The notes beneath the pieces were generated by a model, which was not told the DNA's origin, did no database searches, and saw nothing but the letters and a program-made list of their open reading frames with translations. From Nannocystaceae bacterium ST9 (GTDB taxonomy: Bacteria > Myxococcota_A > Polyangia > Nannocystales > Nannocystaceae), in assembly GCA_048320885.1 (NCBI GenBank), contig JBLWFJ010000001.1:1541642-1605641 (forward strand): 64,000 nt of DNA, given 5' to 3'. This document shows positions 7,654-32,337 of the stretch, piece after piece. Position 1 is the stretch's first letter; each line of letters opens with the position of its first letter. Made by a program: the position numbers and the translations under genes.

Positions 7654-7869
7654 CGGGCACGAGGGTACGCCAGATGGGGCCGCGAGGGCGATCTCGGCCG
7701 CTGCGCGGCGCTGGCGGGGGATCTGCTCGGGTTTGGCGGCGCGGCCCGGGCTCGCCGCGGGATCGAGCCCTCCGGTCCGGGGATGGACGAGGCGGGCCGG
7801 GACGACACCGGCAAATCCATACATTCGATTTCCATCGCAATGAAACCGTCGGATATCGACAATGGATCC

Positions 7870-7912
7870 GAATCGTGTGGGGTTGACAATCGAATCGGAT
7901 TCTCTACCGTCG
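7870..7912 (+). promoter_or_regulatory. Candidate sigma70-type promoter for the CHAT-McrB gene in a locally AT-richer divergent intergenic region
   Basis: gggTTGACAatcgaatcggattctcTACCGTcgag: consensus -35 and a weak -10 at about 17 bp spacing, roughly 20 nt upstream of the ATG at 7928. Short direct repeats (gacaatggatccgaatcg / gacaatcgaatcggattc). Confidence 0.25.
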
Positions 7913-7927
7913 AGGCTGGTGGCGAAC

Positions 7928-17010: not shown

Positions 17011-18699
17011 TCAACGCAGGCCCGCGAACTCGCTCGCGTCCTTGTACTTCGGCACGACCCCGCTCTTCGCGATCACCCGCACGATCGCTACCACCAACTG
17101 CGAGTCCTGCAGCGCCCCCTCGAACCCCCACGCCTCGTCGAATTGATCCGCGGGCGTATGGTAGCGCTCCTTCACGCCGGCCTCGATCAGCTCGCCGGCC
17201 TCGTGCCCGCCCTCGCGCATGTCCATCCCGCCGTGAAAGTAGAGCGCCGGGATCCCGACCAGCGCGAAGGGGAAGTGATCCGAGCGATAGAAGCTGCCGG
17301 CCTCGGGCTTCGAGTCGCCGACGACCTCGCGGCCCTGCGCCTCGGCCTGCTCGATCAGCACGTCCTCGAGCGTGCTCTGGCCCCAACCGACGACCTCGAC
17401 CTGCTTGGTCTCGCCGTACACGTTCATGCTGTCGAGGTTGATCACGCCAACGACGTTCTTGTACGGGATGGTCGGGTCGGCGACCCACGAGCGCGAGCCG
17501 AGCAGGCCCTGCTCTTCGGCGGTGGTCGCCAAGAACACGACCGAGCGATCGAGCGGCTGACCGGCGTCGGCTTGCCGGGCGAGCTCGGCCGCGATCCCGA
17601 GCATGCTGGCGATCCCGCTGGCGTTGTCGATCGCGCCGTTGTGGATCCCGTCCTTGCCCTCGGCGATCAGCTTGGGATCGGTGCCGAGGTGGTCCCAGTG
17701 CGCGGTCAAGATCACGGTCTGCTCGGGCTCACTCGCGCCCGGCAGTCGGCCGAGCACGTTGACGTCGTCGACGCGGCGCTCGGTCGTGACGATCTTGCCC
17801 TGCATGCGCAGCCGGGTCTTGATCGGCTTGAAGTTGGGCTTCAGCGCGAGCTCGTGCCACTCTTTCAGGCTCTTGCCGCCGCGCGAGGCGATCGTCTCGG
17901 CCGTGTCGGCGGTGATCCAACCTTGGATCGGCAACGCGGGCGCGGGCTCGCCCTCGGGGCCGAGCACGGTGAAGCGCTCGTTCGAGAAGCTGGTCTGCGG
18001 CACGTTCCAGCCGTACGAGGCCGGGGCCTCTTCGTGGATGACCAGGCAGCCGGCGGCCCCGGCCGCGAGCGCGGCCTCGTACTTGTAGCTCCAGCGGCCG
18101 TAGTAGGTCATCGCCTTGCCGGCGAAGCGACCGTCGTCGACCGGCGGATCACCGACGAACACCACGGCGATCTTGCCCTTCATGTCGAGCTTGCCGTAGT
18201 CGTTCCACTTCTGCTCGGGCGCGGTCACGCCGTAGCCGAGGAACACCAGCTCGGCGTCGATGGTCTGCTCGGTCCCGGCGGCGAAGCTGCTGCCGACCCA
18301 AGTCTTGCCGAAGGGCATGCTCATCGCCTGGCCCTGGCCGCTGCCGATCTCGACGTGGGTCGCGGCCTGGTCGACGGTCACGCCGCGCATGCGGACGGTC
18401 TGCGTCCAGCCGCCGTCGTCACCGGCGGGCTCGAGACCGATCGCCTGCATGGTCGCGACGATGTGCTCGACGGTCTTGCGCGCGCCCTCGCTGCCGGGCA
18501 GGCGTCCGCCGAATTCGTCGGTCGAGAGCAGGCGGGTGTGGTCGCGCAAGAACTCGATCGTCAGCGCGGGCGTGCCCGGCTCGGCCGGCGGCAAGTCGGG
18601 GGTGGTGTGCTTCGGCTCGGGCGGCGGCGTGGTGGTCGGCTGCGAGGGGCAGGCGGCGAGCAGCAGCGCGAGCGCGAGGGGCATGAAGCGAGGCGGCAT
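17011..18699 (-). CDS. M28 family aminopeptidase lipoprotein (PA domain containing)
   Basis: Only the C-terminal roughly 563 aa of ORF 17011..21015 are real. Start MPPRFMPLALALLLAACPSQ (lipobox) at 18699. M28 motifs HWDHLG and TAEEQGLLGS. Confidence 0.8.
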   Translation of the reverse strand: MPPRFMPLALALLLAACPSQPTTTPPPEPKHTTPDLPPAEPGTPALTIEFLRDHTRLLSTDEFGGRLPGSEGARKTVEHIVATMQAIGLEPAGDDGGWTQTVRMRGVTVDQAATHVEIGSGQGQAMSMPFGKTWVGSSFAAGTEQTIDAELVFLGYGVTAPEQKWNDYGKLDMKGKIAVVFVGDPPVDDGRFAGKAMTYYGRWSYKYEAALAAGAAGCLVIHEEAPASYGWNVPQTSFSNERFTVLGPEGEPAPALPIQGWITADTAETIASRGGKSLKEWHELALKPNFKPIKTRLRMQGKIVTTERRVDDVNVLGRLPGASEPEQTVILTAHWDHLGTDPKLIAEGKDGIHNGAIDNASGIASMLGIAAELARQADAGQPLDRSVVFLATTAEEQGLLGSRSWVADPTIPYKNVVGVINLDSMNVYGETKQVEVVGWGQSTLEDVLIEQAEAQGREVVGDSKPEAGSFYRSDHFPFALVGIPALYFHGGMDMREGGHEAGELIEAGVKERYHTPADQFDEAWGFEGALQDSQLVVAIVRVIAKSGVVPKYKDASEFAGLR

Positions 18700-18764
18700 C
18701 GGCTGCGACGACACCCCGGATCGCGGGCGCGAGCAAGCCCCATCGCTCGTCGGGATCCAGCCGC

Positions 18765-20618
18765 TCAGCTCATGCCCGTGAGCAGGCCGTCGGCGGTCCA
18801 GCGTCGCAGCCATCGCGCGACCGCGGCGGGCGTCGCCGCGTGGCCGGCCAGGCCCTCGGGATCGCTGGCCCCACAGGCCGCCATGCACAGCCCGAGGAAG
18901 TCGGCCCCGTCCTGCAAGGCCAGCAGCGTGCGGGCTTCGTTGGCCGGCAGGTCGCGGTGGAACACGGTCAGGCCCGAGCGCCAGATCAACACGTGGCTGG
19001 GCTCGACCGAACCAGGCCCGGATGGGCCGTGGGCCGGGTGCATGCGGCGGGCCTCGTCGATCGATCGACCCTCGCGACACAGCGACCACATCGGCGAGAA
19101 GGGCCGCGAGCAGGCGCGCACGCGCATCGCCGCGCTCGCGCGCAGGCGCAGCTCGGGCCAGCGATCGAGCGGCACGGCCTCGAACGCCGAGAGCGAGAGC
19201 ATCGGCGCGTCGGGCAGGTCGAGCAGCTCGACGCGATCGAGCTCGATCCGGGCGACCTCGATCAGCTCGGGATCGTCGATGCCCTCGGGGTGATCGGCGA
19301 GGTAGTCGGGGAAGGGCCGCGAGTAGTGGCGCAGGTCGGCGTCGTGCGAGGGGTTGTGCAGCACGTAGTCGGTCAGCAGGTTGTGGAAGCGGACATGGCC
19401 GAGCATCCACGCGACGGTCGGGAAGTGCTCCTCGAGCACGCCGGCCAGCCGCCAGTAGTAGTCGTTGGCGTAGATGTCCATGCGATCGAGGGCCGAGAAG
19501 CCCTCGCTGCAATCGAACGCCTCTTCGAAGGTCTGGCGCAGCTCGGGCGTCGCGGTGGCCAGGAAGTCGGCGACGCCGGTCGGGAAGCGGATCGCCTGCC
19601 AGAACAGATCCAAGTCGGTCGCCAACGCGTATGCGCCGGTTCGGCGAGTGGCGGCGCTCGCCGAGGCCAGCGCGTCGAGGTCGACCCGCGGCCGCTCGGG
19701 TGTCGGGGCCGGGCTGCGCGGGCGAGCGCCGAGCACCTCGTCGGCGATCGCGGCGGCCTTGCGCTGCTCGTCGCGCAGCTCCTCCCAGGCCGGGACGTCC
19801 TCGTCCCACTCGATCAGCGACGAGACCGGACCCCAGCGACGCAGCGCGTTGCGATAGAGCTCCCAGACCTCGTCGGGCACCGGGCCGAGGTGCGAGTCGA
19901 ATTTGTAGAGCCCGCGATCGGTGTGGTTGGCGAGGTGGAATTGCCAGACGCGCTCGCCCGGGATCGCGTCGAGGTAGTCGTCGGGATCCCAGCCATGGTT
20001 GCGCGCGCTGACGATCACGTTGTTGAGATCGAGCAGCAGCAGGCAGTCGGCCCGCTCGGCCAGCTGGGCCAGAAACTCCCACTCGCTCAGCTCGCTCGAT
20101 CGAAAGCCGACGTAGCTCGACACGTTCTCGATCAGGATCCGTCGACCGAGGATGTCCTGCACGCGAGCGACCCGCTCGATCACCGAGTCGAGCGCCTCTT
20201 CGGTGTAGGGCAGCGGCAGCAGGGCGTGGCTGTGCTCGCCTCGCCGAGTCGCCCAGCACAGGTGATCGGACACCCAGGCCGGCTCGATCCGATCGATCAG
20301 CGCCTGCAGGCGATCGAGGTAGCGACGATCGGGGGCGTCGAGCGAGCCGACCCCGAGCCCGACCCCGTGCAGCACGACCGGGAGGTCGCGGCGGATCGCG
20401 TCGAGCGTGGCGAGCGGGCGGCCGCCCTCGCCGAAGAAGTTCTCGCTGATCGCCTCGACCCAGTCGACGTCGAGGCCCTGCACGAGCGCGCGGGCGAAGT
20501 GGCGCGTACGCAGGCCGACCCCGTGACCGAGGAAGGGTCGCGCCCCCACGGCCGAGCCCGCAGGGCGCCCACGGCCGAAGGAAGCACCGCCGCGGTCGAG
20601 CTCGCGGTCTTCGGGCAT
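18765..20618 (-). CDS. Fused MNIO (DUF692, MbnB/BufB-like) - DUF2063 (BufC/HvfC-like) RiPP maturase
   Basis: N-terminal TIM-barrel DUF692 motifs ([31 protein letters not shown]). C-terminal half resembles DUF2063. Probable start MPEDRELD at 20618 (ORF to 20702). Confidence 0.75.
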
Positions 20619-20707
20619 CGGCCGGACGATACGCGATTCTCGAGGGCGACTGCACCGTCCCGCGTAACCTCGCGCTCGGGTCCGGCAATCTGCCCCGGAC
20701 AACCGCC

Positions 20708-21064
20708 ATGTCCAAGACCAGCACGCAGTTCATGTCCGCATTCGCCCTCTCGGCCGCCGCCCTCTTCCTCGGTGGGTGCAAGGAAAAGCCCGCCACGGTC
20801 GACCCCGAGTCCAATATCGACCCCGAAGGCGGGTCGACCGCGACCGGCGGCTCGACGGCGACGACCGACCCCGAGCTCGACCCGACCGAGCAGGTCAAGT
20901 GCTTCGGCATCAACGCGTGCTCGGGCCAGAGCGCCTGCAACGTCAACAAGCCCGAGCTGGGCATCGAGCACGCCTGCGCAGGCGAGAACGCGTGCGCAGG
21001 CAAGGGGTGGATCAAGGTGACCCGGCAGGAGTGCAGCGAGAAGAAGGGCGAGGAGCTGGGTTAG
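20708..21064 (+). CDS. DUF2282/bufferin-like Cys-rich precursor lipoprotein
   Basis: Signal plus lipobox AALFLGGC. Acidic Thr/Gly linker. Core [17 protein letters not shown]...[27 protein letters not shown] has 6 Cys in the DUF2282/BufA pattern. Transcribed divergently, 90 bp from the MNIO gene. Confidence 0.7.
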
Positions 21065-21228: not shown

Positions 21229-22905
21229 ATGTCGGAGGCGAACGGTGAACAGGTGACGGACATCGTCTTCCTGGCCACAGCTTGGGGTCCCCGCAGTGGG
21301 GGTATCAACGCGTTCAACATCGATCTGTGCACTGCCCTCGCTGGTCTCGCGCGAAGTGAGCAGGGCCGCGCTTTGCGTGTCGCCTGCATCGTCCCCTCGG
21401 CACCTTGGGGCAACGACGAGCGCCTCTTGGATGGTGCCCTTGTGATTCCGCTTGGGCATTCCCCCGAGCTCACCGAGCTTCCAGTCGCCCACACGGCCGA
21501 GGTCATCGCGCAGTTGGACCGGCATGGCCTCGCCGGGTCAGTAATCGTCGGCCACGACCTTCATACTGGTCCTGTGGCGTTGGCAGTGCGCGATGCCCTG
21601 CGTGCTCGTTCGATCATGGGCAGCCGCGCAGCGATCGTGGTGCACACCGACCCAGCGGCCTACAAGGGCTTCGAGGGTGGGTCTGACGAACGAACACAGG
21701 TCAAGGTCAACGAACAGCGCGAGATCGTCCGCGGTGCCGATCTCGTGTTTGCGGTTGGACCTCGGTTGGCTAACGTCGCGCGCGATCTGCTGCGAGGTTT
21801 GAGCACACACCCGGTCGAGTTAATCCCCGGACTTGCACCGATCGAACCGATCCAGGAGCCTTCCATGCGGTTCCATGCGATCACATTTGGGCGCCTCGAG
21901 CCGCGCGCAGACCGGGTCAAGCAAGGTCGACTTGCGCTTGCTGGCTTCGCCAATTTGGTCGGCCCTCGGGCCACTGACCTCGGCCACGACCCGGTCTTTC
22001 GCCTCGTAGGGGTAGAGGAGAGGGAGGCCAGCCAGTTCGCTACGCTCGCTTCCGAACAAGCTGGGCGACCAATCATGGTCTATGCGTTGCCTTTCAACGA
22101 TGATCGAACCCATTTGTGGAAGCAGCTCTCCGAGCACTCCGCTTCGCTGATGCTGTCTCTACACGAGGGCTTTGGCTTGACTGGTTGGGAGGCGGTCGCA
22201 GCTGGGGTCCCGCTGGTGCTCTCTACAAACACCGGACTCTACGATCACCTCGAGAGTCACGATGCCTTGGGGCGGAAGGCAACGGGATGCGTCTACCCTG
22301 TGACAATCCAGGGCTCACTGAACGGTGATTTCGACCAGCGAGATATCGAGTTGATCGGGGCGGCGTTGGCCGATGTGGCGCGGAACCCCACCAAGGCCAA
22401 GAAAGGGGCGCTCGATCTCCGGCGTATGTGCCTTGATGCTGGCTTCACATGGGCATCGACAGCATACGAGTTTGCGGAGGGATGTGGGTTGAGGCTTGGG
22501 AATCCACGTGGCGTGCCAACTCACGAGACGGATCGAGCACCGTATCAGCACCGCGACTCCACGAGCGAGGGGAACGACGCACTCGAGGAGCCTCAGACTG
22601 CGATCGAGGCTACGTCGCTGTACTCTCGTTCGACCGCCACAACGTCCCAGTTGCCCATGCCCCTCATCCATTGCCTGGCCGAGAACTACCCCGACGTTAC
22701 CACTGCGCGGGAGCTCTGGCGCCGTGCCGGCGGATCGGCGCGCGAGGTGGAGAATCTCAGTCGACCAGTCGATCTCTGGCAGCGATTGTGGCAACTAAGC
22801 GTGGCGGGCGCCCCCGTGCGACCCGTTGCTTTACTCCGTGCTGCGCTGGAAGATTTGCCGAACAATGAAATCCTCTTGACAGCTCTCCAGGAAGTGATTA
22901 GTTAA
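21229..22905 (+). CDS. GT4-like glycosyltransferase-fold protein with a C-terminal helical effector-associated-like module
   Basis: GT-B motifs (LHEGFGLTGWEAVAAGVPLVLS). The C-terminal roughly 70 aa (ARELWRRAGGSAREVENLSRPVDLWQRLW...LEDLPNNEILLTALQEV) is shared with the C-terminus of 25999..28405. Confidence 0.7.
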   Translation: MSEANGEQVTDIVFLATAWGPRSGGINAFNIDLCTALAGLARSEQGRALRVACIVPSAPWGNDERLLDGALVIPLGHSPELTELPVAHTAEVIAQLDRHGLAGSVIVGHDLHTGPVALAVRDALRARSIMGSRAAIVVHTDPAAYKGFEGGSDERTQVKVNEQREIVRGADLVFAVGPRLANVARDLLRGLSTHPVELIPGLAPIEPIQEPSMRFHAITFGRLEPRADRVKQGRLALAGFANLVGPRATDLGHDPVFRLVGVEEREASQFATLASEQAGRPIMVYALPFNDDRTHLWKQLSEHSASLMLSLHEGFGLTGWEAVAAGVPLVLSTNTGLYDHLESHDALGRKATGCVYPVTIQGSLNGDFDQRDIELIGAALADVARNPTKAKKGALDLRRMCLDAGFTWASTAYEFAEGCGLRLGNPRGVPTHETDRAPYQHRDSTSEGNDALEEPQTAIEATSLYSRSTATTSQLPMPLIHCLAENYPDVTTARELWRRAGGSAREVENLSRPVDLWQRLWQLSVAGAPVRPVALLRAALEDLPNNEILLTALQEVIS

Positions 22906-22917
22906 GCAGATGCGAAT

Positions 22918-24204
22918 ATGACCGACTTTCTACTGAAGCTCGTCAATCGAGGTTTTGTTCCAAAGCTGGAAGGCGACGATCTCAAGCTTGCGAAAATCCA
23001 GAAAGCGAGCAACGCACTCGCAGCGGAGTTCGCCCGGTCTCCACGCCGTCTGATCCGCGCGATACTGGCGGGCATCGAACCAGATGTATCAGATAAGGAT
23101 CCCGAGATCGTCGCGGCCGAGCAGGCTGTGCTTCAACAGTGGGGCACGATGCGGACGGTTCACACCGATTCACCGACCAATCTGCTGCGCGCGGTGCTAC
23201 TCGACGCGTGCTTTCAGGCTGCACAGGGTCCCCGGGCCGCCGTGGTGTGGCTCACAATCGTCGATCAGTTGCCCTTTGTGAGGCTGGGCGCGGAGGAGAC
23301 GACGGTGCGCAACCAACTGGATACGTTGGCCATTTCGGTTGAGAATCAGGCGCTCGCCGGGCTTGGCGGAGAGAAGCCAAAACAGGTTGGCTCGATCAAT
23401 ATCGGCCGGCCTAATCTAGCGGGAGCGCAAAATCTCACCGGCGGGGACATGGCTGCGCTGAGCGAGCGGGCCAAATCTGCCTTCCCGTTCACCCAACAAA
23501 GTGGGAATTGGCAACTTCTGGCCGACGCCGTCAACGTTTGGATGAACGCGTTCCCTGACCAACTGAGCGGCATGCTCGCCGCGCTACACAGGGGAATCGT
23601 TGAGAGCGTACAACTTGATCGTTCTCAACTCATCACGGCATTCGCCGACGCAACCGCTATCATCGAGAAAACCGTCAACGACCAGAGGGAATGGCTGTTT
23701 GCGGCACAGGCCGATTTTGAGGCTTCCTCCCGTATTCGACTGGAGGCGCTGTGGTGGGCGGAGGCTCTCTATTCTCCCTCGCTACAGATCAGCTACCGAC
23801 AAATCCCGTCGACATTAGCGACTTTCGTCATGGCGTTTGATCTCGCCGCGGTGGTAGGGGTCACGGCGCCCGCATCGGTCGGCTTCCTGCTCGCAGAGAC
23901 GATAGCGAAGCTGCCTTCCGCCGGGTTCGATGAAGCCCGACCGTTGGGGACCATCCTTGACGGATTGCGCGAGCATCGAGGCCGGCTTCCCGCCGCGTGG
24001 CTCGACCAACTCGAGTCTCCGACCGAGGGCAGCTTGAGCATTCGAGATCTGGCGGTATTGTCCCTCCGCGGTGACAGCATCCGTTACGAAAACGCCAAGA
24101 ATGAGTTCAGCTCGCGCTTCGAGAAAACCATGAACTTACCGGATTTCGGACATGCGATTCATCGCCAGGAACGGGCATGTCGGATCGTTCAGGAGTTGAA
24201 ATGA
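22918..24204 (+). CDS. All-helical hypothetical protein (GTPase-associated, GASH-like?)
   Basis: 428 aa, predicted helical, no known catalytic motif. 12-nt gap from the upstream gene and overlaps the downstream GTPase. Confidence 0.6.
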   Translation: MTDFLLKLVNRGFVPKLEGDDLKLAKIQKASNALAAEFARSPRRLIRAILAGIEPDVSDKDPEIVAAEQAVLQQWGTMRTVHTDSPTNLLRAVLLDACFQAAQGPRAAVVWLTIVDQLPFVRLGAEETTVRNQLDTLAISVENQALAGLGGEKPKQVGSINIGRPNLAGAQNLTGGDMAALSERAKSAFPFTQQSGNWQLLADAVNVWMNAFPDQLSGMLAALHRGIVESVQLDRSQLITAFADATAIIEKTVNDQREWLFAAQADFEASSRIRLEALWWAEALYSPSLQISYRQIPSTLATFVMAFDLAAVVGVTAPASVGFLLAETIAKLPSAGFDEARPLGTILDGLREHRGRLPAAWLDQLESPTEGSLSIRDLAVLSLRGDSIRYENAKNEFSSRFEKTMNLPDFGHAIHRQERACRIVQELK

Positions 24205-25160
24205 GCACCTTGAAGTGCAGTGAGGCCCGTTGTTACGTTCACGAGGGCCAGGGTTGCAGCCTGGGTAATCCAATTGACCAGTGCCCAAATCGGGCTGTGC
24301 CCGAGCACCGCGACGGTTCGTCTCCGCCGACCACGTCTGAAGACAGTGGGCGGGTGTGTTGGTCCGGGGCAGCCCTGGGCACGGACGACATCGCGTTGCT
24401 CACGATGCGTGCACGCTCGATCATCATTGGCGTTGTTGGGGCACACAACGCCGGCAAAACAACGCTCCTAACCGGCACCTACGTGATGGCCCAGCGCGGC
24501 GAACAAATCGCCAACGCACGTTTTGCTGGCTCGCGGAGCCTCGAGGCCTGGGAGTCTCTCGCCGCGTGGACGCGATTCGACGACGCCGCCCGCTTGCCAT
24601 CCTTTCCGCCCCACACCCCGCGGGGCTTTGGTCGAACGCCGGGCCTCTTGCATGTAGCACTCCGGGGCGCCAACGACGAACTGCGCGACGTCCTGCTCAC
24701 CGACGCCCCAGGTGAGTGGTTCATGCGCTGGGCGATGCAGCGAGACAGCCCCGAGTGTGAAGGAGCGCGTTGGACAGCCGAGAACGCGGATGGATTCCTG
24801 ATCGTCGCGGATTGCATGAATCTGTCAGGTGAGGAGCGAGGCATTGCTCGTGAGTCTACGCGCTCGCTCATCGACCGGATGGGCGATGTCGTCGACGGGC
24901 GACCGGTGACATTTGTGTGGGCCAAGGCTGAGCAGCATCCACCCACGGGTATTCGAAAGGCGATTGAGAATACTCTCGCACAACGGATCCCACATGCCAC
25001 CCAGGTCGAGAGCCGTCTTGATCAACCCGCCACACTGTGCTCGGCCGTTGGCGGAATCGTCAAGGCATGCTGGTGGCCTCCCTGCGGTAAGGTGAGCCGG
25101 GTGCCAGTCCTGTCATCGACACCTTTCGAAGCATTCCGGGGGCATCGTGACCAAGCCTGA
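24177..25160 (+). CDS. P-loop GTPase with N-terminal Cys-cluster (zinc-ribbon-like)
   Basis: Walker A IIGVVGAHNAGKTTLL, DxxG LLTDAPGEW, N-terminal CSEARC...CSLGNPIDQC. Confidence 0.7.
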   Translation: MSDRSGVEMSTLKCSEARCYVHEGQGCSLGNPIDQCPNRAVPEHRDGSSPPTTSEDSGRVCWSGAALGTDDIALLTMRARSIIIGVVGAHNAGKTTLLTGTYVMAQRGEQIANARFAGSRSLEAWESLAAWTRFDDAARLPSFPPHTPRGFGRTPGLLHVALRGANDELRDVLLTDAPGEWFMRWAMQRDSPECEGARWTAENADGFLIVADCMNLSGEERGIARESTRSLIDRMGDVVDGRPVTFVWAKAEQHPPTGIRKAIENTLAQRIPHATQVESRLDQPATLCSAVGGIVKACWWPPCGKVSRVPVLSSTPFEAFRGHRDQA

Positions 25161-26003
25161 ACTTGTGTTGTTGGGCGGCCACGACAGTGGGAAAACCCAC
25201 TACGCGGCACAGCTCTACGGACGATTGCGTCGCCGCCCAGGCGAGCTTCGTCTGCGGGAGTTGGCGGCACGCCTGCGGATCTCAGTGCCCTTGAGGAAGT
25301 CCTCATGTGTTTGGGAAGGGGTCGTGCGGCAGGGCATACCGCGACCAGTACATGGGCGGAGTTGAAACTGCCACTGGTCGACCGAATCGGGCGCGAACTC
25401 GACGTGACCTGGCCAGACTACGGTGGTGAACAGGTCCGGCAAATGTCACGGCTTCGCATGATTCCGCGCGAGTGGGTGGAGCGACTGACGCGGGCGGATG
25501 GCTGGGCTGTGCTAATCCGCCTGCAGAGCGAGAAACAATACTCGGACTCGCTCGAACACCTGACGGAGCGGCCCCATGCAAACGAACATTCGGATGAAGG
25601 GTCCGCCGACACCTTCGAATGGGACGCCAACGCGAAATGGGTTGAACTTCTGCAGATGCTACTGCACGTAGCGGGGCACGGGACCGTGCGGAGGCTGCTT
25701 CGCCCACGTTTGATCGTGTTGCTGTCGTGCTACGACGAAGTCGCTGTCGCCACCGACGAGACCCCCGCGGCAGTGCTGGAGCGCTGGCTCCCCTTATTGT
25801 CCGCCTTCATCAACTCGAACTGGTCTGCTGGCGCGGCAACTGTGTGGGGTATTTCCCCACTTGGAAAACCGCTTACGCCGGATTCCCGCGACACGGACTT
25901 CATCGATGACGGCCCCGAACTTCAGGGGTGGATCGTTCAACCCGACGGGAGTAAGTGCGACGATCTGAGTCTCCCGCTCGCGTGGTTGCTGGAGGCGACG
26001 TGA
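25147..26003 (+). pseudogene. Second, paralogous P-loop GTPase interrupted by a frameshift (ORFs 25147..25365 and 25305..26003)
   Basis: Walker A LLGGHDSGKTHY is in the first ORF; DxxG (TWPDYGGEQ) and the rest of the paralog are in a second frame overlapping 25305-25365. The alignment is parallel to GTPase 1 (DAPGEWFMRW vs DYGGEQVRQM). Confidence 0.55.
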
Positions 26004-28405
26004 TTGAACCATTGCGCGCACGTTACGGCGACGTCAACCGAGGACACAACATCCTCGAGTGGACCGGCCAGGGCAATCTACCATCAGTTTTGTTGGGACT
26101 CACTGACAAACCCACTGGAACCCGGGGCCCTGATGACCGGTGGTGGCCTTCCGTTGGGTGCGGCGCGTTCGAGGGCTGGTGGGCGCTTTGGTGGACCATT
26201 CCCGACCGCGGTGCGCAGCGGGCTGGTATGGTGGAGAGTGAGGTTGCGCTGTGGCCCGTGGCGAGCATTGGAGAGGTGGCAGATCTCTTGCCAGTACTGG
26301 CGACGATGGCTGGCCGAGACTCCATCACCATGCCGAGCGACGATTACCTCGGTGCGATTGTCGAGGCTCTGGTTCGCGGCGGTGAACCCCCGGTGCTCGC
26401 GGATCTCGATGTGTGGCCCGGGGTGCTAGCCGCGCTCTGGCTCAGGTTGTCTCCGACTGACCGGCAAACGTTCTCCGCCCGCGTCGCCATGTTACCACCG
26501 CAGGGGGGCGACTCAGTCATGCCGCCAAGTCTGTTCGTGACAAGGAGTGACCGGACCCTTCAATGGCCTTGCGAGCGGGTCATCACCCAACACACCACGC
26601 CTGCCGAACTATCCCGCGCCGCCCGATGGTTTCTCGATCGCGAGGACCCAACCATCGCTGACCTACTCGACGGGTGTCCAGATCTCGAATGGCAGATGAA
26701 TCGCCTGCCAACTTTGGCACGCGCCGCTGATGAAATCGATCAGATGAATGCGACTTCTGATCCTGTGTACGCCCTGTACGCCCTACGCACGCTCATAGCT
26801 ATCGCACCGAATCCCCTTCACGCGGTTGAACCGAAACGCGCGGCTCTCCGGTTCCTCGGCGCAGGGCTCCCAACTGCAAACCTCCAATTCATTCTCGCAT
26901 TGCGAAATATCAAGGAGTCCGCCGTGCAGACGCTCGGAGATCTGAATGATGGTGTCCGCGCCTGGGTCGATCGGGGGACACCGTCGTTGAACGCAGCAGA
27001 CGCTGCGCGCCTTCTGAGTGAACTCGATCCCGATCGGGCCGAACCCTGGTGGACGGAAACGGTGTCGAATGGCCTTGGCGCTGCATTGCGACTACCGAAG
27101 GGGACTTGGGCAAAGGCCGTGCTGTGCTGGCTCGCGCTGCCGGCCTGCGCCACCGCCCTCCGCGAACTACTACCGACGACAGCGGACGTCGAGGACGCAC
27201 TATTCATGGCGGTAAGCGGCCTTGATTGGACGTCGGAAGCTTCCCCTTTGCTGTTGTCCGAGGTCCGTCGCCGCGGGTGGTCGCGCCTTCATGCCCGGGT
27301 CGCTATCGCGACACAGCCTGCCCGTGAAGCGATTAGGATTCAGCGAGCCTCGCAACTCGACGAGGATCCCGGCCTCGAGGTGATTGTTGAACTCGTGGCG
27401 GGTCAGGATTTGGTGCAAGAGGCCGTTGACAATCCCGATACGCGCTTTGTGGGGCTCGTCGCTCGACGTACCGTTCGTCAACCGGAACTGCTCGCCCCCC
27501 TCGATCCCCAGAACCCTGCCTGGCGCGGGCTGTGGGAGGCACACATCAAGGCCGGCGGTGAGCCCTGGCCTCCACGCGCAGATAGGTCGTTCGTATCGAC
27601 CTGCCTGCTCGACGCAACACTCGATGGTGAAGCGCCAGAATCTCTGTTGCGAAGTTTGGCGAAGGATATGGGACCCTTCGTATTCGGCTATAAGCGGCGC
27701 GCAGCACTTTGGGATGTCCTGCCCGGAAAAGTGAAAGACTCGCTGCTGGCCGCGGCCGCGGCCGTCTTACTCGAACAGGTTGACGCTGGAATCACGATCT
27801 CGCCCGAACCTCCCTTAGCAGCAGCCGCCTTCTTGCGAGCAGCGAATATGCAGCCCCGCCCAACTATTGTGGCCGCACTTCTGAAATGGGACGTGGACGT
27901 GACCGAACAACAGATGATCCACTGGTTGCACGAAGTGACGCCCGAACGTTGGAAGTCTGTCGCGCTACAGATCGGTGAAGAGATCTCGCGTCGGAGGTGG
28001 AGTGAGGCGGCGGCAGTGCTCGCGGATCAGTGGGCCTCCCGCAGCTTCACCAGGCCGGGTGCAATCGCCTGTGCTGAGCTCCTGCCCCGCTGGCGACGAT
28101 GGCGGCTGGGGCTGGACGCCGAGGAGGCTTCACGTTCGACTCTGATCGAGCGGGTGGTAGAGCTGGGAGCGGAGCATGCACCCGATGAGCTTGATATGCT
28201 CTGGGAGCGGGCAGGCGGGAAGCGAAAAGTCCTTCCTAGTGGTACACCGGAAATTCGCTGGCGCGAGGCCGCACGCGCTGCTGAGGGCGGCGCCCTCAAG
28301 AACGGCCTCGTGGAGTTGGTGGAGCAACTGCTCAGTAAGTTACCCTACAACCGCAATCTTCAGGAGCTTGCAGAAGTCCTGAGGAATAACGGACGTCGGC
28401 GATAA
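25999..28405 (+). CDS. Large hypothetical protein (about 802 aa) with W-rich N-terminal domain and C-terminal effector-associated-like module
   Basis: The GTG at 25999 overlaps the upstream TGA. The C-terminus DELDMLWERAGGKRKV...LLSKLPYNRNLQELAEVL is alignable to the C-terminus of 21229..22905. Confidence 0.7.
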
Positions 28406-28549
28406 CGAGTTTAGTGAACAGGAGAAAGGGTTGGCACTCCTCGGCTCGATCAGCGGCTTGGTGATCCCCACCCGATCTTGGCTTCGGGTGGGAGTCTCGT
28501 GCCGGCTTCGCCGGCACGAGCCCCACCAACCGAACGACCGCCCTCCAGC

Positions 28550-30484
28550 TCAGGTCCGAAGAACCCAAGCCTTCAAGCGCGCCGAGTAGGTCACCGCGTT
28601 GGCCCCACTCGCGCCGATCACCTGCCACACCGGCGGCGTGCCGGCGGTGAAGGGGATCGTGTACTCGGTCATGCTCGGCCGGTTGCTGACGAACGCGTGC
28701 AGGTCGCGGGACGGCGAGCTCCCCGAGAGATCATTGACACGCAAGATGGTCTGATTCGCGGTCGCGCCGGTGCCGGAGATCATCAGCTCGAGCACCGCCC
28801 CGATCGCGTTCGAGGGGACCCGCGAGGGGCCGATCGCGATCGGAGCCATCGGGGCGTTGGCCGTGCCGGACAAGAAGATCTCGCGCTCGTCCCCGAGCAG
28901 CAATTCGACGCCCTCGGCATAGCTGCGATAGCTGGCCGCGTACTCGCCCTCGACCACCCACACCGAGTCGACGAGCACGCGCTGCCCGTCGAGCTCGGCG
29001 ACGTCGCCCGCGTAGGGGTACACGCGAACCCGCAGGCGGCGAGGCCCGACCACGCCGCCGGCCAGGCCGTCGAAGCGACCGGTGAGCGAGCGGACTCGCC
29101 ACGAGGTCGGCCCGACGCCGGTGTCCGAGAAGAACCCGAGCCGGGTGCCGCTCGCGACGTCGATCAGATCGATCCGAAACGCGAAGATGTCGGAGTCCGA
29201 GTCGAGGATCTGGTAGCGAACGCCGACGGTGACGCTGCGGACGCCCGAGTCGACGACGAAGTCCTGGTAGACGTGCTCGCCGGTCGAGGCGTTGACGGTC
29301 AGCATGGTCGACGCGCCGCCGGTCACGAAGGGCGTCTGGTGGACCGCGACGAAGGGCGGCGGGACCGAGTTCGACCAGAACAGCGCGCCGCGGCTCATGT
29401 CCGAGTTCTTGAGCCGATTGACGTGCGCGGCCGTGGCCCCGCAGATCGCCCCGCCGTAGGCGTTGACGGCGTAGGCGTTGCCCGACTGCGGAGCCTGAGG
29501 CACGTCGACGACCCCGCGGGTCTCGGGCGGCAGCTCGAGGTAGGTCGGCGTCCAGTTCCACTCGCCGAAGGGCACGCCGGGCTCCGAGAAGAGCGCGCCT
29601 TCGAAGGTCAGGTTCATCGTCGACTCGTCGACGTAGACCGAGCGCCGGCGGGTGCTGCCCTCCTCGAAGTTGCCGGGCTCGAAGTAGCAGCCCTGCACGG
29701 TCACGCCCATCGAGCCGGTGATGCTCAGGCAGAGCGGCGAGGCCTCGACGTTGACGCCGGAGATCACCAGGCCCTGGGCGCCCTGCGGGACGCCGACGTT
29801 GCTGGGCGTGCCGACGATGTGAATGCCGACCCCCTCCTCGCGCGCGCCCTTGGGATCCTTCTCGGTGTAGAGCACCAGGCTGTAGAACACCCGGCCGTTC
29901 TGCAGCACGCAGGCGTTGGTGTGATCGCCGACGTAGATGCCGGTCTGGCAGCTGAACACGTCGAAGCGCTCGACGTAGTTGTAGCCGCTGTAGGGGGTGG
30001 TGCCCGCGCTGAGCTGGATGCCGATCCCGAAGTTGCCGATCACCACGTCGCGCACGCGGTTGAACAGCGACTGGTCGAAGCTGATCCCGATCCCTTGCGG
30101 CGGGGTGTTGAAGTCGTTGCCGACCGGGCCCTCGAGCCGAAAGTGATGCAGCGTGCTGCGGGCGAGCAGGCCGAAGGGCACGGTGTTGGGCGCGAACAAA
30201 AACGCGGGCACCGACAGATCGGTCGGCTTGTAGACCAGGTTGGTCTGGCCCTCCTGGCCCTGGCCGAAGATCTCGGTGCCGACCGGCAGCCAGGGGTTGC
30301 CCTGGTACATGATCTGCTCGAAGTACCAGTCGCCGGCCGGGATCGAGATCCGCCGCGCGCCCGAGTCGAACGCGGCGCGGAACGCCTGGGCGTTCTGCAC
30401 GGTCGCCAGCGGGTTGTTGGGGATGGCCCCGAAGTCCGAGAGATTCGCGATGCGTTCGGTACGAAGGATTCGAGTCGCCATCAT
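28550..30484 (-). CDS. Right-handed beta-helix (pectate-lyase-fold) protein, tailspike-like, no signal peptide
   Basis: Start MMATRIL at 30484 (the ORF to 30724 is an R-rich extension). N-terminus ANLSDFGAIPNNPLATVQNAQAFRAAFDSGARRISIPAGDWYF is typical of the Pectate_lyase_3/tailspike family. Gly/Val/Thr-rich beta-helix body. Confidence 0.7.
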   Translation of the reverse strand: MMATRILRTERIANLSDFGAIPNNPLATVQNAQAFRAAFDSGARRISIPAGDWYFEQIMYQGNPWLPVGTEIFGQGQEGQTNLVYKPTDLSVPAFLFAPNTVPFGLLARSTLHHFRLEGPVGNDFNTPPQGIGISFDQSLFNRVRDVVIGNFGIGIQLSAGTTPYSGYNYVERFDVFSCQTGIYVGDHTNACVLQNGRVFYSLVLYTEKDPKGAREEGVGIHIVGTPSNVGVPQGAQGLVISGVNVEASPLCLSITGSMGVTVQGCYFEPGNFEEGSTRRRSVYVDESTMNLTFEGALFSEPGVPFGEWNWTPTYLELPPETRGVVDVPQAPQSGNAYAVNAYGGAICGATAAHVNRLKNSDMSRGALFWSNSVPPPFVAVHQTPFVTGGASTMLTVNASTGEHVYQDFVVDSGVRSVTVGVRYQILDSDSDIFAFRIDLIDVASGTRLGFFSDTGVGPTSWRVRSLTGRFDGLAGGVVGPRRLRVRVYPYAGDVAELDGQRVLVDSVWVVEGEYAASYRSYAEGVELLLGDEREIFLSGTANAPMAPIAIGPSRVPSNAIGAVLELMISGTGATANQTILRVNDLSGSSPSRDLHAFVSNRPSMTEYTIPFTAGTPPVWQVIGASGANAVTYSARLKAWVLRT

Positions 30485-30858
30485 CCACCTGCCTTTCGCG
30501 CGTTGATTCGCGCGCCCGAGAATGTCCAGGGGATCACCGCCACGTCGGCGACGATCGCCTCCCTGGCGAACCATTCGACCAGGCTGGGCGCGGCCTGTCC
30601 GGCGGCGACCAGCGCCGCGTGCAGGGCATTGACGGCGCGCCGATGCTCCGCGCCGTCGCTGGATTCGCGGGGATCGGTCCCGACCACCCGATTGAGGAAT
30701 TCCCGCGAGCCACATTGGTGACAATGCGGCAATTCGATGATGTTGGGATCGCGCGGGGATTCGACGCCGACGCGCAGCCCGGCCCGCGGGAGCTCGCGCG
30801 TGGCGCCGCAGGCGTCGCAGCGCTGATGGATCGATTCGACGGAGATGTTCGTGAGCAT
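30481..30858 (-). CDS. Small zinc-ribbon protein
   Basis: MLTNISVESIHQRCDACG...PHCHQCG (two CxxC pairs). 4-nt overlap with the beta-helix gene. Confidence 0.5.
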   Translation of the reverse strand: MLTNISVESIHQRCDACGATRELPRAGLRVGVESPRDPNIIELPHCHQCGSREFLNRVVGTDPRESSDGAEHRRAVNALHAALVAAGQAAPSLVEWFAREAIVADVAVIPWTFSGARINARKAGG

Positions 30859-30872
30859 GATGTCTGGTCCTC

Positions 30873-31322
30873 TCAATAGGTGATCGTGTAGGTTCCGCGG
30901 ATCCAGGCGTCGGCGTTGGCGGCCACCGACGCCGAGGTGCCCGAGAGCACGAAGCCGACGTCGGTGACCGAGCTGACCGTCGGGAGGGTCGGCCAATCGA
31001 GCTGCGAGCTCGCGGTGATCGTGACCGAGCTCGGCGCCGTGTCGAGCACGGCCCGAAAGCCGATTGCGGTCAGCACGAAGACGGCCCGATTGGCCGTGTC
31101 GGCGGTGTTCTTGGCGCCCAGGCCAAAGGGCCCGATCGTCGGCAATCCTGCGATCGGTCGCCAGGTCGAGGCCGCGGCCAGCACTGCGGTCGCGGTATAG
31201 AGATTCACCCCATCGAGCAGACAGAAATCGCCCAATGCGACCCCGTCCTCGCTGCCGAGCGCGTCGCGTTCGAGCGTCGTGCTCGCCATCCACAGATTCA
31301 GCGTCTTGGTCGTCGTCATACG
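30873..31322 (-). CDS. Hypothetical protein (Ser/Thr/Ala-rich beta-type)
   Basis: Probable start MTTTKTLNLW. About 149 aa with protein-like composition, upstream in the same operon. Confidence 0.45.
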   Translation of the reverse strand, partial: RMTTTKTLNLWMASTTLERDALGSEDGVALGDFCLLDGVNLYTATAVLAAASTWRPIAGLPTIGPFGLGAKNTADTANRAVFVLTAIGFRAVLDTAPSSVTITASSQLDWPTLPTVSSVTDVGFVLSGTSASVAANADAWIRGTYTITY

Positions 31323-31467
31323 GTTCCCTTCGCGACCTCGAATCGTCGCAAATGCGCCGACTCTCGGTTCGAACCAGGGATTCCCGCGTTCGCTCGAATC
31401 GATCGATCTTCGCGAAGAAAGACGCAAAGCGATCAGGTCGCGATCCCGCCGCGAGGCGAGCGGCCGT

Positions 31468-32337
31468 TCAGCCGCCGCCGCAATCGATCGCCGTGAGCGC
31501 CCAACCCAGCCCGATCACCACCACCCACTTGAGCACCCAGACCAGCAAGAAGGTCTTGAGCACCGCGGGCCCGTAGTAGCGCAGCGCCTGGCCGACCGTC
31601 AGCCGGCGGACCATCGCGTCCCAGCTCGGCCGCTCGCGCAGCCGGGCGTACCAGTCGGCGATGTGCGGGCGACGGTGGGCGGCCATGGTCCGGGCGAAGC
31701 CGATGTGCTCGAGCCGGGCGATCACGGCCGTCCAGACCAGATCGGCGAGCGTGTAGCGATCGCCGGCCAACCAGCGGTGCTCGCCGAGGTGGTGTTCGAG
31801 CCCGTCGAGCACCACCTCGATCTCGTCGACCAGCTCGCGGGTCGCGGCGTGACCGGCGACGGCGCGCTCGAGCTGGTCGAGATCGTCGAGCTTGGCCTGG
31901 TAGACCGCGGCGAGCTCGGGCTGCTTGCGGATCAGCTTGCGCAGCTGCTTGCGCTTCTGCTTGAGACCCCAGCGCCGCAGCCAGCGAACCAGGCCCTTGG
32001 TCTGGGCGAGCTCGAGCTCGCGCATCGGCAGGCGATCTTGCAGGTCGACCCAGCGCATGACCTCGTCGGCGAGCTCGGCGGGGATCAGCGTCGGCCCGGG
32101 GAAGCGCCGATCGATCGACTCGACGATCTGTCGCGAATCGGTGACGACCTCGTCGTCGAGGACCAGCGTGGGCACGACCAAGCGCGGGTTGATCTGCGCG
32201 TACCAGGGCTGGAGCTGCTCGTGCGCCGGCCCGATGTTGACGATCGTGCTCTGCCAGGCGACGCCCTTCTCGGCCAGCGCGAGCCGGACCTTCTGCGAGC
32301 AGAGCGATGTCGGGAAGTGGTAGAGCCGAACGTGCAT
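31468..32337 (-). CDS. Glutathione S-transferase-like protein with C-terminal hydrophobic segment
   Basis: MHVRLYHFPTSLCSQKVRLALAEKG (GST N-terminal thioredoxin-like fold), then a helical C-domain and a terminal TM-like stretch. Confidence 0.7.
   Translation of the reverse strand: MHVRLYHFPTSLCSQKVRLALAEKGVAWQSTIVNIGPAHEQLQPWYAQINPRLVVPTLVLDDEVVTDSRQIVESIDRRFPGPTLIPAELADEVMRWVDLQDRLPMRELELAQTKGLVRWLRRWGLKQKRKQLRKLIRKQPELAAVYQAKLDDLDQLERAVAGHAATRELVDEIEVVLDGLEHHLGEHRWLAGDRYTLADLVWTAVIARLEHIGFARTMAAHRRPHIADWYARLRERPSWDAMVRRLTVGQALRYYGPAVLKTFLLVWVLKWVVVIGLGWALTAIDCGGG

Follow-up and report, generated by a model that had tools for sequence, protein, structure and literature searches.

A probable GAP1-N1-type DO-GTPase conflict system with a GT4 glycosyltransferase effector and a frameshifted GTPase gene in Nannocystaceae bacterium ST9

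The GAP1-N1-type DO-GTPase system was described by Kaur, Burroughs, Iyer & Aravind (eLife 2020, PMC7159879) as comprising two DO-GTPases, one of them with a ZnR, together with GASH and with EAD1 on both GAP1 and the effector. The effectors reported for the GAP1-N1 subtype are calcineurin phosphoesterase, PNPase, TIR, SLATT, trypsin, caspase, alpha/beta-hydrolase and DNA glycosylase, and the subtype shows no association with multicellular bacteria (48/262 organisms, P = 0.9998; PMC7159879). Kaur et al. (eLife 2021, PMC8195603 section 15) describe GT4 effectors for GreA/B-C, VMAP, CATRA, STAND, nSTAND2 and AP-GTPase systems; for DO-GTPase systems, GT4 is not named in the text (figures and source-data files aside) of PMC7159879 or PMC8195603.

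In the window analysed here, a stretch of 64,000 nucleotides from Nannocystaceae bacterium ST9, a block of five + strand genes at 21229-28405 carries the Pfam labels GT4-conflict + EAD1, GASH, DO-GTPase2, DO-GTPase1 and GAP1-N1 + EAD1, in this operon order. Very probably, the block is a conflict system of the GAP1-N1 DO-GTPase ('GTPase-centric') type that was acquired horizontally, with a GT4 effector and a frameshifted DO-GTPase1. It is a rare variant of an already described, predicted system type and not a new kind. Its features are as follows.

21229..22905, +, effector gene, 558 aa: GT4-conflict domain (residues ~1-415), polar linker of ~55 residues, C-terminal EAD1
22651..22902, +, EAD1 of the effector, residues about 475-558 (Pfam EAD1 at 480-550)
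22918..24204, +, GASH, all-helical, 428 aa (Pfam GASH 3.2e-67, residues 9-422)
24201..25160, +, DO-GTPase2, 319 aa (Pfam DO-GTPase2 1.2e-61), start ATG at 24201
24216-24284, +, zinc-ribbon-like cluster of four Cys at the DO-GTPase2 N-terminus, spaced C-x4-C-x7-C-x8 (8-10 across the family)
25147..26003, +, DO-GTPase1, disrupted (Pfam DO-GTPase1 positions 1-35 in the first ORF, 46-271 in the second)
25256..25265, +, frameshift site, a 1-nt deletion adjoining the GGG run 25256-25258
26000..28405, +, GAP1, 801 aa: GAP1-N1 (about 26000-26404), long alpha-solenoid, C-terminal EAD1
28130..28402, +, EAD1 of GAP1, residues about 711-800, modelled as a bundle of five helices
28467..28520, no strand assigned, pair of GC-rich hairpins in the interval separating the operon from the convergent gene 28550-30724(-)

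The + strand ORFs span 21229-22905, 22918-24204, 24177/24201-25160, 25147-25365, 25305-26003 and 25955/26000-28405, the longest forms of DO-GTPase2 and GAP1 beginning at 24177 and 25955, respectively. The five genes are translationally coupled; 12 nt separate the first two, and the later junctions are overlaps, of ATGA at 24201, of 14 nt at 25147 and of GTGA at 26000. Because GC falls across 21229-28405 to 0.617 (61.7%) vs 0.688 (68.8%) in the remainder of the window, and GC3 to 0.65-0.71 in the block genes vs about 0.9 in neighbouring genes, the block is, judging from its base composition, horizontally acquired DNA. The initial annotation had proposed a lower-GC run of tightly coupled + strand genes, which the ORF coordinates, GC and GC3 confirm; its six genes are reduced to five, ORFs 25147-25365 and 25305-26003 being a single split DO-GTPase1 gene. 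Its view of the locus as a GTPase-centred EAD conflict system is upheld by the match of each gene to a dedicated Pfam family of that system, and its link to multicellular bacteria does not hold for the GAP1-N1 subtype. As it had also supposed, no experimental characterisation was found in the literature searched for this system type or for any of its members. The term "conflict system" therefore rests on comparative genomics, because such support was not found and none of the five proteins matches the PADLOC models.

The gene order is shared with relatives. In 80 species-representative loci, the core order recurs in 77 genomes, so that the neighbourhood, as the initial annotation asked, is conserved elsewhere; GASH is detected in 77/80, DO-GTPase2 in 78/80 and GAP1, the least well detected core gene at phmmer E<=1e-3, in 65/80. 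By Pfam labels, the order effector-EAD1, GASH, DO-GTPase2, DO-GTPase1, GAP1-N1(-EAD1) is also found in relatives. The effector slot is variable: among 23 close loci it carries EAD1 in 21, PNP_UDP_1 in 16, TIR in two, and SEFIR, Metallophos and CHAT in one each, and in a distant clade it is caspase-EAD1 in 11/11. The closest-clade effectors are thus PNPase-, TIR-, calcineurin- or CHAT-EAD1 proteins, and GT4 occurs in 0/80. Compared with the system of PMC7159879, the ST9 block has the same gene order, a GAP1 with N1, GASH, two DO-GTPases (one with ZnR) with the Walker B glutamate, and EAD1 both C-terminally in GAP1 and on an effector encoded by its own gene, and it behaves as a mobile unit with a variable effector. 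It differs in its frameshifted DO-GTPase1 and in its GT4 glycosyltransferase effector, which is absent from both the effector list of that paper and the 80 loci.

The effector matches GT4-conflict (1.9e-71) and EAD1 (2.8e-5) in Pfam. In its AF2 model (pLDDT 91.2, pTM 0.91), the top Foldseek matches are the retaining GT-B enzymes GlgM (2e-14), MshA, BshA, SPS, OtsA and WaaG, bearing out, together with Pfam, the earlier reading of a glycosyltransferase-fold protein with an EAD-like tail. Every family-invariant residue is kept, including K231 and H312-E313...E321 (EX7E motif). The GT4 domain is therefore predicted to be a catalytically intact-looking retaining GT-B glycosyltransferase, whose activity is likely kept because the invariant K and EX7E are present and the model has the retaining GT-B fold. 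It belongs to the same family as the known GT4-conflict effectors (Pfam PF20706), sharing all their invariant residues and their position as effector of an NTPase-regulated system, relatives being STAND NTPase fusions or EAD2 fusions next to VMAP-C; unlike them, it is coupled to EAD1 and to a DO-GTPase core, which PMC8195603 section 15 does not list among its contexts.

The two parts of the effector have different closest relatives. By tblastn, its tail shares 44-67% identity with the C-termini of the EAD1 effectors (PNPase-, TIR- and others) of 24 related loci, and the GT4 domain has no match in the 80 related loci, including those 24. At 58% identity, the N-terminal part of a GT4-nSTAND5 protein of 1975 aa is the nearest relative of the GT4 domain, further relatives being NB-ARC/TPR/WD40 fusions. 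When 1.84 billion representatives were searched exhaustively, the best 150 matches all stopped short of the EAD1 tail. By its sequence relationships, the effector is a chimera of a close-clade EAD1 tail and a GT4 domain closest to a GT4-STAND NTPase fusion. It probably arose by domain replacement: the EAD1 tail of the clade was retained, and a GT4 domain such as is usually found in STAND (NLR-like) NTPase fusions took over from the customary PNPase or TIR head. GT4 conflict effectors as such are already described; GT4 as an effector of a DO-GTPase system was not found described in the two papers. The earlier remark that a glycosyltransferase effector would be unusual is thus valid within this system but not in general.

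The C-terminal modules of the 558-aa and 801-aa proteins, taken as shared in the initial annotation, both exceed the Pfam EAD1 cut-off of 24.2 (24.9 and 28.2 bits). Pairwise BLASTP aligns the effector and GAP1 tails weakly (33% over 86 aa, E 0.34), and profile-profile comparison of the two tail families with hhalign gives 97.9% probability (E 3.5e-13, 78 columns), indicating at the sequence level that the modules are homologous and both EAD1. The effector-tail HMM scores the GT tail at 125.7 bits and the GAP1 tail at 19, and the GAP1-tail HMM gives scores of 109 and 27.8 bits; by these scores the tails belong to distinct sub-lineages. The predicted model suggests that EAD1 is CARD/death-fold-like. 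Bacterial CARD-like domains occur in gasdermin and other anti-phage systems (Wein et al. 2023, PMC10312443; PDB 9frr, 8ss1), where, as proposed for EAD1, a small terminal helical adaptor joins a sensor or regulator to an effector, a role shown experimentally for bacterial CARD (PMC10312443). However, the likeness is to the predicted model, with no sequence-level link: the EAD1 sequence profile found no death-fold protein in the PDB. Instead of a protease or gasdermin, EAD1 has as its partners a glycosyltransferase and a GTPase-associated scaffold.

GASH is the fastest-evolving core component, with about 30-39% identity to close-clade orthologues. DO-GTPase2 has the P-loop GAHNAGKT, and its four N-terminal Cys are invariant in 19/19 orthologues. 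Both GTPases carry the Walker B Glu (DAPGE in DO-GTPase2, DYGGE in DO-GTPase1). Pfam and the orthologue alignment agree with the initial annotation on an all-helical protein and two P-loop GTPases, the first with a Cys cluster. The relationship behind its description of the GTPases as paralogous is deep: there is no significant BLASTP match, and profile comparison is weak (hhalign E 0.0056, probability only 6.6%), with P-loop, HT and DxxGE motifs in register.

GAP1, named 'effector-associated domain EAD1-containing protein' by NCBI in strain ST9, matches GAP1-N1 (5e-22; an alpha/beta domain) and EAD1 (2.6e-6). Its middle and C-terminal part has no Pfam family, GAP1-M or GAP1-C included, even at E<=1; of the families proposed for checking, GASH, GAP1-N1 and EAD1 were found and GAP1-M and GAP1-C were not. 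In the AF2 model (pLDDT 89.7), elements ordered bb-a-bbb-a-a precede the solenoid, and Foldseek with the whole model returns weak solenoid matches alone (E >= 4.6e-3). The predicted element order, shared with longin GTPase regulators (GATOR1 NPRL2/NPRL3, FLCN-FNIP, Lst4-Lst7), suggests that GAP1-N1 is longin-like, a longin-type GTPase-regulator domain; it is likewise encoded and co-evolving with a GTPase pair. In contrast, the ST9 GTPases are of a different TRAFAC family, and the likeness is an analogy from predicted structure. Neither longin nor roadblock is mentioned in PMC7159879 or PMC8195603.

After Kaur et al. 2020, the two GTPases would form a heterodimeric switch that GAP1-N1 contacts and regulates, with GASH and the solenoid as fast-evolving, probably invader-sensing parts. 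The EAD1 of GAP1 would pair with that of the effector, and a GTP-dependent conformational change would deploy the glycosyltransferase, which may use a nucleotide-sugar to modify an invader or host target. The notion of an ordinary cell-envelope or polysaccharide glycosyltransferase operon with chance NTPase neighbours draws on weak matches to general GT4 families (Glycos_transf_1 and others) and on the JGI name of several homologues, 'glycosyltransferase involved in cell wall biosynthesis'. It is effectively refuted: GT4-conflict is by far the best family (241.6 bits vs 28), no genes for sugar-nucleotide synthesis, flippase or polymerase lie near the effector, GT and GAP1 bear the same adaptor, and the GT homologues inspected (STAND NTPase or EAD2 fusions, or neighbours of VMAP-C, restriction-modification genes, TniQ and integrases) sit in conflict contexts and not in envelope operons, which also settles the envelope-role test set by the initial annotation. 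A GTPase-controlled module for self-directed programmed death, kin discrimination or mobile-element addiction, as opposed to anti-phage defence, is unlikely. The GAP1-N1 subtype is widespread in unicellular Gamma-, Beta- and Alphaproteobacteria, Acidobacteria and others and is not enriched in multicellular bacteria (PMC7159879), and its effector pool (TIR, PNPase, caspase, calcineurin) is common to other predicted counter-invader (anti-phage type) systems. In favour of this reading, ST9 belongs to the socially developing myxobacteria, the block comes from foreign DNA, and systems of this type have decayed more than once, in the manner of costly or toxic modules; neither a defence phenotype in the literature searched nor a PADLOC match was found.

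The N-terminal fragment of DO-GTPase1 (25147-25365, 72 aa) bears the P-loop GGHDSGKT, and the remainder (ORF 25305-26003, 232 aa) lies in the -1 frame; they represent one gene because the fragments match complementary parts of the DO-GTPase1 profile with a -1 frame change between. The stretch between the LR and GTP codons (25258-25265) is 8 nt long, one short of the 9 required. One G added to the GGG run gives an uninterrupted 285-aa ORF with no other defect, which aligns gap-free to 12 intact homologues of 276-294 aa; the homologues listed, apart from the window's own 232-aa fragment, are 275-294 aa, and the best tblastn segment is essentially full-length in 80/80 related loci. Since the deletion cuts the P-loop off from the remaining protein, the system as sequenced is probably inactive, unless the deletion is an assembly error. 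Such a homopolymer-length error (GGGG read as GGG) in an intact, functional system is a realistic though less favoured possibility: the site borders a G run, a single G restores all family-invariant residues, the other four genes are full length relative to orthologues, and the record is a single 6.98-Mb contig, inferred to be a long-read assembly, a type prone to such errors. On the other side, the run is only three G long. In a non-exhaustive GC3 phase scan of the 64 kb, several flags were interpreted as arising at gene boundaries or from edge tolerance, and no further gene was seen to be clearly split, which argues against a high indel error rate. Related systems are also demonstrably broken in other genomes, with frame changes in two loci (L010, L030) and GASH interrupted by about 1.5-1.8 kb of non-matching sequence in two others (L013, L068), a probable insertion that base-calling error would not explain. 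A programmed frame change (ribosomal slippage or phase variation) setting the amount of full-length DO-GTPase1 is highly improbable: a -1 shift within the frame overlap 25161-25365 could in principle make the full protein, but the site has no X-XXY-YYZ slippery heptamer or long repeat tract, the sole nearby stem called (25292-25305) is a weak 5-bp consensus match, and the gene is in one frame in all 80 related loci and every homologue listed, the window's fragment excepted.

A bufferin RiPP cluster and an unannotated gene, rather than classic defence genes, immediately flank the block; 9-17 kb upstream there are a CHAT-AAA+ protein and a Ppl-like ATPase. No U-tract follows the hairpins at 28467-28520, and a consensus terminator scan gives no call there; they fold at -47.4 kcal/mol (z = -6.1 vs shuffles) and may serve as a terminator or insulator.

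Every gene of the operon at 21229-28405 (+), which lies on a 6.98-Mb contig of Nannocystaceae bacterium ST9, was placed by Pfam in a dedicated family of the GAP1-N1-type DO-GTPase system, a predicted GTPase-centric conflict system, bearing out the system type proposed in the initial annotation. Six genes had been counted; the analysis gives five, because the 72-aa and 232-aa open reading frames (ORFs) are one DO-GTPase1 gene in two frames. The features are as follows, EAD1 being a small helical adaptor at the C-terminus of both the effector and GAP1.

21229-22905, +, ORF 1, GT4-conflict+EAD1 effector, 558 aa (Pfam GT4-conflict 1.9e-71, EAD1 2.8e-5)
22918-24204, +, ORF 2, GASH, 428 aa (Pfam GASH 3.2e-67, profile positions 5-397 of 398)
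24177-25160, +, ORF 3, DO-GTPase2, 327 aa, or 319 aa if started at the ATG at 24201 (Pfam 1.2e-61)
25147-25365, +, ORF fragment, N-terminal part of DO-GTPase1, 72 aa (Pfam DO-GTPase1 5.2e-8, positions 1-35)
25305-26003, +, ORF fragment in the -1 frame, remainder of DO-GTPase1, 232 aa (Pfam 4.1e-57, positions 46-271)
25955-28405, +, GAP1-N1+EAD1, 816 aa, or 801 aa from the GTG at 26000 (Pfam GAP1-N1 5e-22, EAD1 2.6e-6)

The genes look translationally coupled, as the first two are 12 nt apart and the following junctions all overlap, by ATGA, by 14 nt and by GTGA, the last between the DO-GTPase1 stop and the GAP1 start. The 801-aa form corresponds in length to the GAP1 product at NCBI, which is already named by its EAD1 domain. 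The GC content of the block is 61.7%, compared with 68.8% in the remaining window, and its GC3 is 0.65-0.71 compared with ~0.9 in the flanking genes, consistent with recent acquisition from a donor of lower GC. Within the effector gene, the segments for GT head, linker and EAD1 tail have an even GC content (0.61-0.63). An island boundary search at the block ends found no tRNA gene, no flanking direct repeats and no promoter-like site. Two strong hairpins (28467-28520, -47.4 kcal/mol, z = -6.1) lie between the operon and the convergent gene.

The system described by Kaur et al. 2020 (PMC7159879) comprises two DO-GTPases, one of them with a zinc ribbon, together with GASH and GAP1, and in one configuration EAD1 is found both at the end of GAP1 and on an effector encoded by a gene of its own. 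The architecture of the locus is exactly as published. A GAP1 with an N1-type N-terminal domain lies downstream of a DO-GTPase gene, and GASH, which is exclusive to the N1 subtype, is present. Both DO-GTPases retain their P-loops and the Walker B Glu (DAPGE, DYGGE), DO-GTPase1 being frameshifted, and DO-GTPase2 has four N-terminal Cys that are conserved without exception in 19/19 orthologues. A variable effector completes the set, and a small terminal non-enzymatic helical domain, EAD1, is carried by both this effector and the core component GAP1 in one locus. The two GTPases had been described as paralogous; their motifs are indeed in register, but their mutual similarity is weak (hhalign E 0.0056, probability 6.6%; BLASTP not significant). 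GAP1 residues ~101-734 match no Pfam model, GAP1-M and GAP1-C included, even at E<=1, and 100 GAP1-N1 proteins, likewise labelled with N1 and EAD1 only, align collinearly with the protein over its entire length (E down to 1e-190). Judged by sequence, the locus shows all those defining features of the GAP1-N1 system that can be tested, except for recognisable GAP1-M and GAP1-C domains by Pfam. The suggested link to multicellular bacteria fails for the GAP1-N1 subtype (P = 0.9998, Kaur et al. 2020). A literature search by family names and Pfam accessions yielded no experimental study of any system member, the relevant papers being the two by Kaur et al., and PADLOC has no model for the system and no match for any of the five proteins. 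Since this system type has been predicted since 2020 and never tested, any tractable example has some value.

The proposal that the GT and GAP1 proteins end in a common module was confirmed, as both tails score above the Pfam EAD1 threshold. In pairwise BLASTP the two tails are 33% identical over 86 aa, which is not significant alone (E 0.34), and a profile of 20 effector tails aligns to one of 19 GAP1 tails with 97.9% probability (hhalign, E 3.5e-13). With the effector-tail HMM the GT tail scores 125.7 bits and the GAP1 tail 19; with the GAP1-tail HMM the GAP1 tail scores 109 bits and the GT tail 27.8. By these scores the tails are two distinct EAD1 sub-lineages, and the cross-scores point to a predicted pairing between two long-separated EAD1 subtypes instead of recent duplicates. 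No third EAD1 was found in the 64-kb window.

Conservation of the gene order, raised as a check in the initial annotation, was examined in 80 loci that serve as species representatives (one genome per species) of 120 confirmed matches. The loci span Myxococcota, Gamma-, Beta- and Alphaproteobacteria, Acidobacteriota, Actinomycetota, Armatimonadota, Planctomycetota and one cyanobacterium, and the core genes are present with their order kept in 77/80 (GASH), 78/80 (DO-GTPase2) and 65/80 (GAP1) loci. In the close clade, defined by a DO-GTPase1 46-59% identical to that of the window plus one related locus (L063) at 41%, an EAD1-bearing gene lies immediately upstream of GASH, as in the window. The contents of this effector slot vary, the Pfam assignments in 23 close-clade loci being EAD1 (21), PNP_UDP_1 (16), TIR (2), SEFIR (1), Metallophos (1) and CHAT (1). 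Distant-clade loci have a caspase-EAD1 gene after GAP1 (11/11). Identities to the close-clade orthologues are ~55% for DO-GTPase1, ~50% for DO-GTPase2, ~38% for GAP1 and ~35% for GASH; having the lowest values, GASH and GAP1 are the fast-evolving parts.

The GT4 domain of the window has no match in any of the 80 loci (phmmer; tblastn on both strands), and the last 80-100 residues of the effector are 44-67% identical to close-clade effector tails, indicating a chimera in which the local adaptor was kept and the head was changed. When 1.84 billion representatives were searched exhaustively with HMMER, 1573 matches were obtained, the best 150 of which cover residues ~10-470 only, none reaching the EAD1 tail. 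Closest among these 150, at 58% identity, is a 1975-aa GT4-nSTAND5 protein, matched at its N-terminus, and other matches carry NB-ARC, TPR or WD40 domains. These comparisons document an effector exchange at domain resolution, with a GT4 head of STAND-fusion ancestry. The relatives retrieved by a word-indexed search, all at <=40% identity, have three kinds of setting: some are fusions to nSTAND NTPases; at locus L008 the domain is joined to EAD2, with an EAD2-VMAP-C gene alongside; and at loci L001 and L002 it belongs to an operon of GT4, NUDIX-like and guanylate-kinase-like genes near restriction-modification, TniQ and integrase genes. The window's GT itself adjoins GASH, the GTPases and GAP1, and the relatives inspected lie in conflict contexts, not in glycan operons. 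An ordinary envelope GT operon was therefore rejected on context, the partners being of conflict type both here and in these relatives.

The GT enzyme looks active, as its invariant residues are kept and its model is that of a retaining GT-B enzyme. The GT4-conflict family (PF20706) is matched with 241.6 bits against a cut-off of 26, and all 28 family-invariant columns are present (28/28), including K231 and the EX7E glutamates E313 and E321. The AF2 model (pLDDT 91.2, pTM 0.91) adopts a retaining GT-B fold nearest to GlgM, MshA, BshA, sucrose-phosphate synthase (SPS), OtsA and WaaG, with TM-scores up to ~0.7 to MshA, SPS and BshA among the top structural matches. Against the PDB, the single GT4 domain sequence found no match and its profile found weak C-terminal matches only, to SPS and 7qsg ('D-inositol 3-phosphate glycosyltransferase'). 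GT4 effectors have been proposed to glycosylate invader molecules or host-invader interfaces (Kaur et al. 2021, PMC8195603), and the GT4 section of that paper names several host systems, the DO-GTPase system not among them. With this locus, the range of the GT4-conflict effector grows by a system type for which we found no such description in the literature; the swap is rare and of a type foreseen by the published model itself.

As deposited, DO-GTPase1 has its P-loop severed from the remaining protein. The joined frames align gap-free to 12 intact homologues of 276-294 aa, and 8 nt (25258-25265) separate the 'LR' and 'GTP' codons where 9 are required; a GGG run adjoins, and one inserted G restores a clean 285-aa ORF. 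Apart from the window's own 232-aa fragment, the other DO-GTPase1 homologues among those listed are 275-294 aa long, and the best match is essentially full-length in 80/80 genomic loci. Programmed frameshifting was rejected, as there is no slippery heptamer and the relatives examined have a single frame.

As sequenced, the ST9 switch has no complete DO-GTPase1, so that the system has probably been switched off and is at an early stage of decay, unless the defect is a one-base (homopolymer) error of the assembly. Such an error is the less probable explanation, if by no means a negligible one. In its favour, the defect is single and all other operon genes are intact; against it, no other clearly split gene was noticed in the 64 kb by a GC3 phase scan, in which several flags were put down to edge tolerance or gene boundaries without a homology check. 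Decay, moreover, has parallels, as related systems are broken in other genomes too, with damage in 4/24 close-clade loci (L010, L013, L030 and L068). In two of them, a Nannocystaceae MAG (L013) and Methylobacter tundripaludum SV96 (L068), GASH is interrupted by a stretch of ~1.5-1.8 kb that matches nothing in it and is probably inserted. In Nannocystis pusilla Na p29 (L010), GASH has one frame change and GAP1 two, and a DDE transposase adjoins; L030 has many frame changes.

The AF2 model of GAP1 (pLDDT 89.7) consists of an alpha/beta N-domain (bb-a-bbb-a-a), an alpha-solenoid (~233-700) and a C-terminal bundle at 711-800, where EAD1 (PF19955) is predicted to form five helices. In this model GAP1-N1 appears longin-like and was likened to FNIP2, FLCN, NPRL3 and an Asgard longin domain; the terms longin and roadblock are absent from both Kaur papers. 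EAD1 may be CARD-like or death-fold-like in the model, and its sequence profile found no death-fold chain in the PDB. Kaur et al. treated EAD1 as structurally comparable to death-like domains, and later experiments have shown that effectors of anti-phage systems are activated by bacterial CARD-like adaptors (Wein et al. 2023, PMC10312443).

Our analyses establish the parts list, the common adaptor, the conserved order, the variable effector and the intact-looking GT active site. In the likeliest working model, the two GTPases would form a switch engaged by GAP1-N1, GASH and the solenoid would sense the invader, and a GTP-driven rearrangement would deploy the EAD1-tethered glycosyltransferase. 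On a separate, speculative reading that we consider unlikely, DO-GTPase systems could be a bacterial 'longin-domain regulator + GTPase pair' switch (cf. GATOR1/FLCN-Rag) coupled through a CARD-like EAD1 to interchangeable effectors, the output here being glycosylation by a STAND-derived GT4. If true, it would represent a GTPase-gated glycosyltransferase immune effector, acting on an invader or host target, whose GT4 was captured from an NLR-like STAND protein. The predicted structures offer two testable mechanistic handles, the apparently longin-like GAP1-N1 and the possibly CARD-like EAD1. The new elements are the rare effector swap, the frameshift and the two model-based fold assignments; the architecture is published, the copy is apparently broken, and the finding would not surprise a specialist.

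Several genes around the operon were also annotated. A bufferin-type RiPP cluster (18765-21064) lies immediately upstream, and further conflict-type genes occur 9-17 kb upstream (4451-12953), a region that may be a loose defence island.

20708-21064, +, BufA2-like precursor, 118 aa, lipoprotein-signal, Cys-rich (NCBIfam BufA2 4e-14, 52.6 bits, cut-off 60)
18765-20702, -, BufB MNIO maturase fused to a DUF2063/HvfC-like domain (346 bits, cut-off 310)
5764-7929, -, SMC/AAA_23-like ATPase (PADLOC Ppl 5e-30, profile positions 274-891 only; LmuB models also match)
7862-11797, +, CHAT (caspase-like) and AAA_5/MoxR-like ATPase protein, 1311 aa
11544-12953, +, ORF without family match

The bufferin precursor and maturase genes are divergent, and the maturase is fused to its partner domain; both arrangements seem unusual. 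Among the GT4-conflict relatives, a conserved four-gene operon is found at 10001-14412 of L001 and 4825-9273 of L002. It encodes the GT4-conflict protein (645-660 aa), a NUDIX-like protein (~430 aa) and two smaller proteins, one guanylate-kinase-like (~200 aa) and one of ~195 aa, and adjoins type I restriction-modification genes, TniQ or three integrases. The operon has the look of a distinct conflict module based on GT4, perhaps one not described before. Downstream of the operon in the window, a 724-aa ORF (28550-30724, -) has no match in Pfam, NCBIfam or PADLOC. On the minus strand ahead of a GST-like gene, the GC3 phase shifts three times (30484-31470), suggesting two short genes or possibly frame changes. 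In addition, an M28 peptidase gene (17011-18759, -, Pfam 2.6e-44), revealed by the GC3 phase plot only, is situated inside a spurious 1334-aa ORF.
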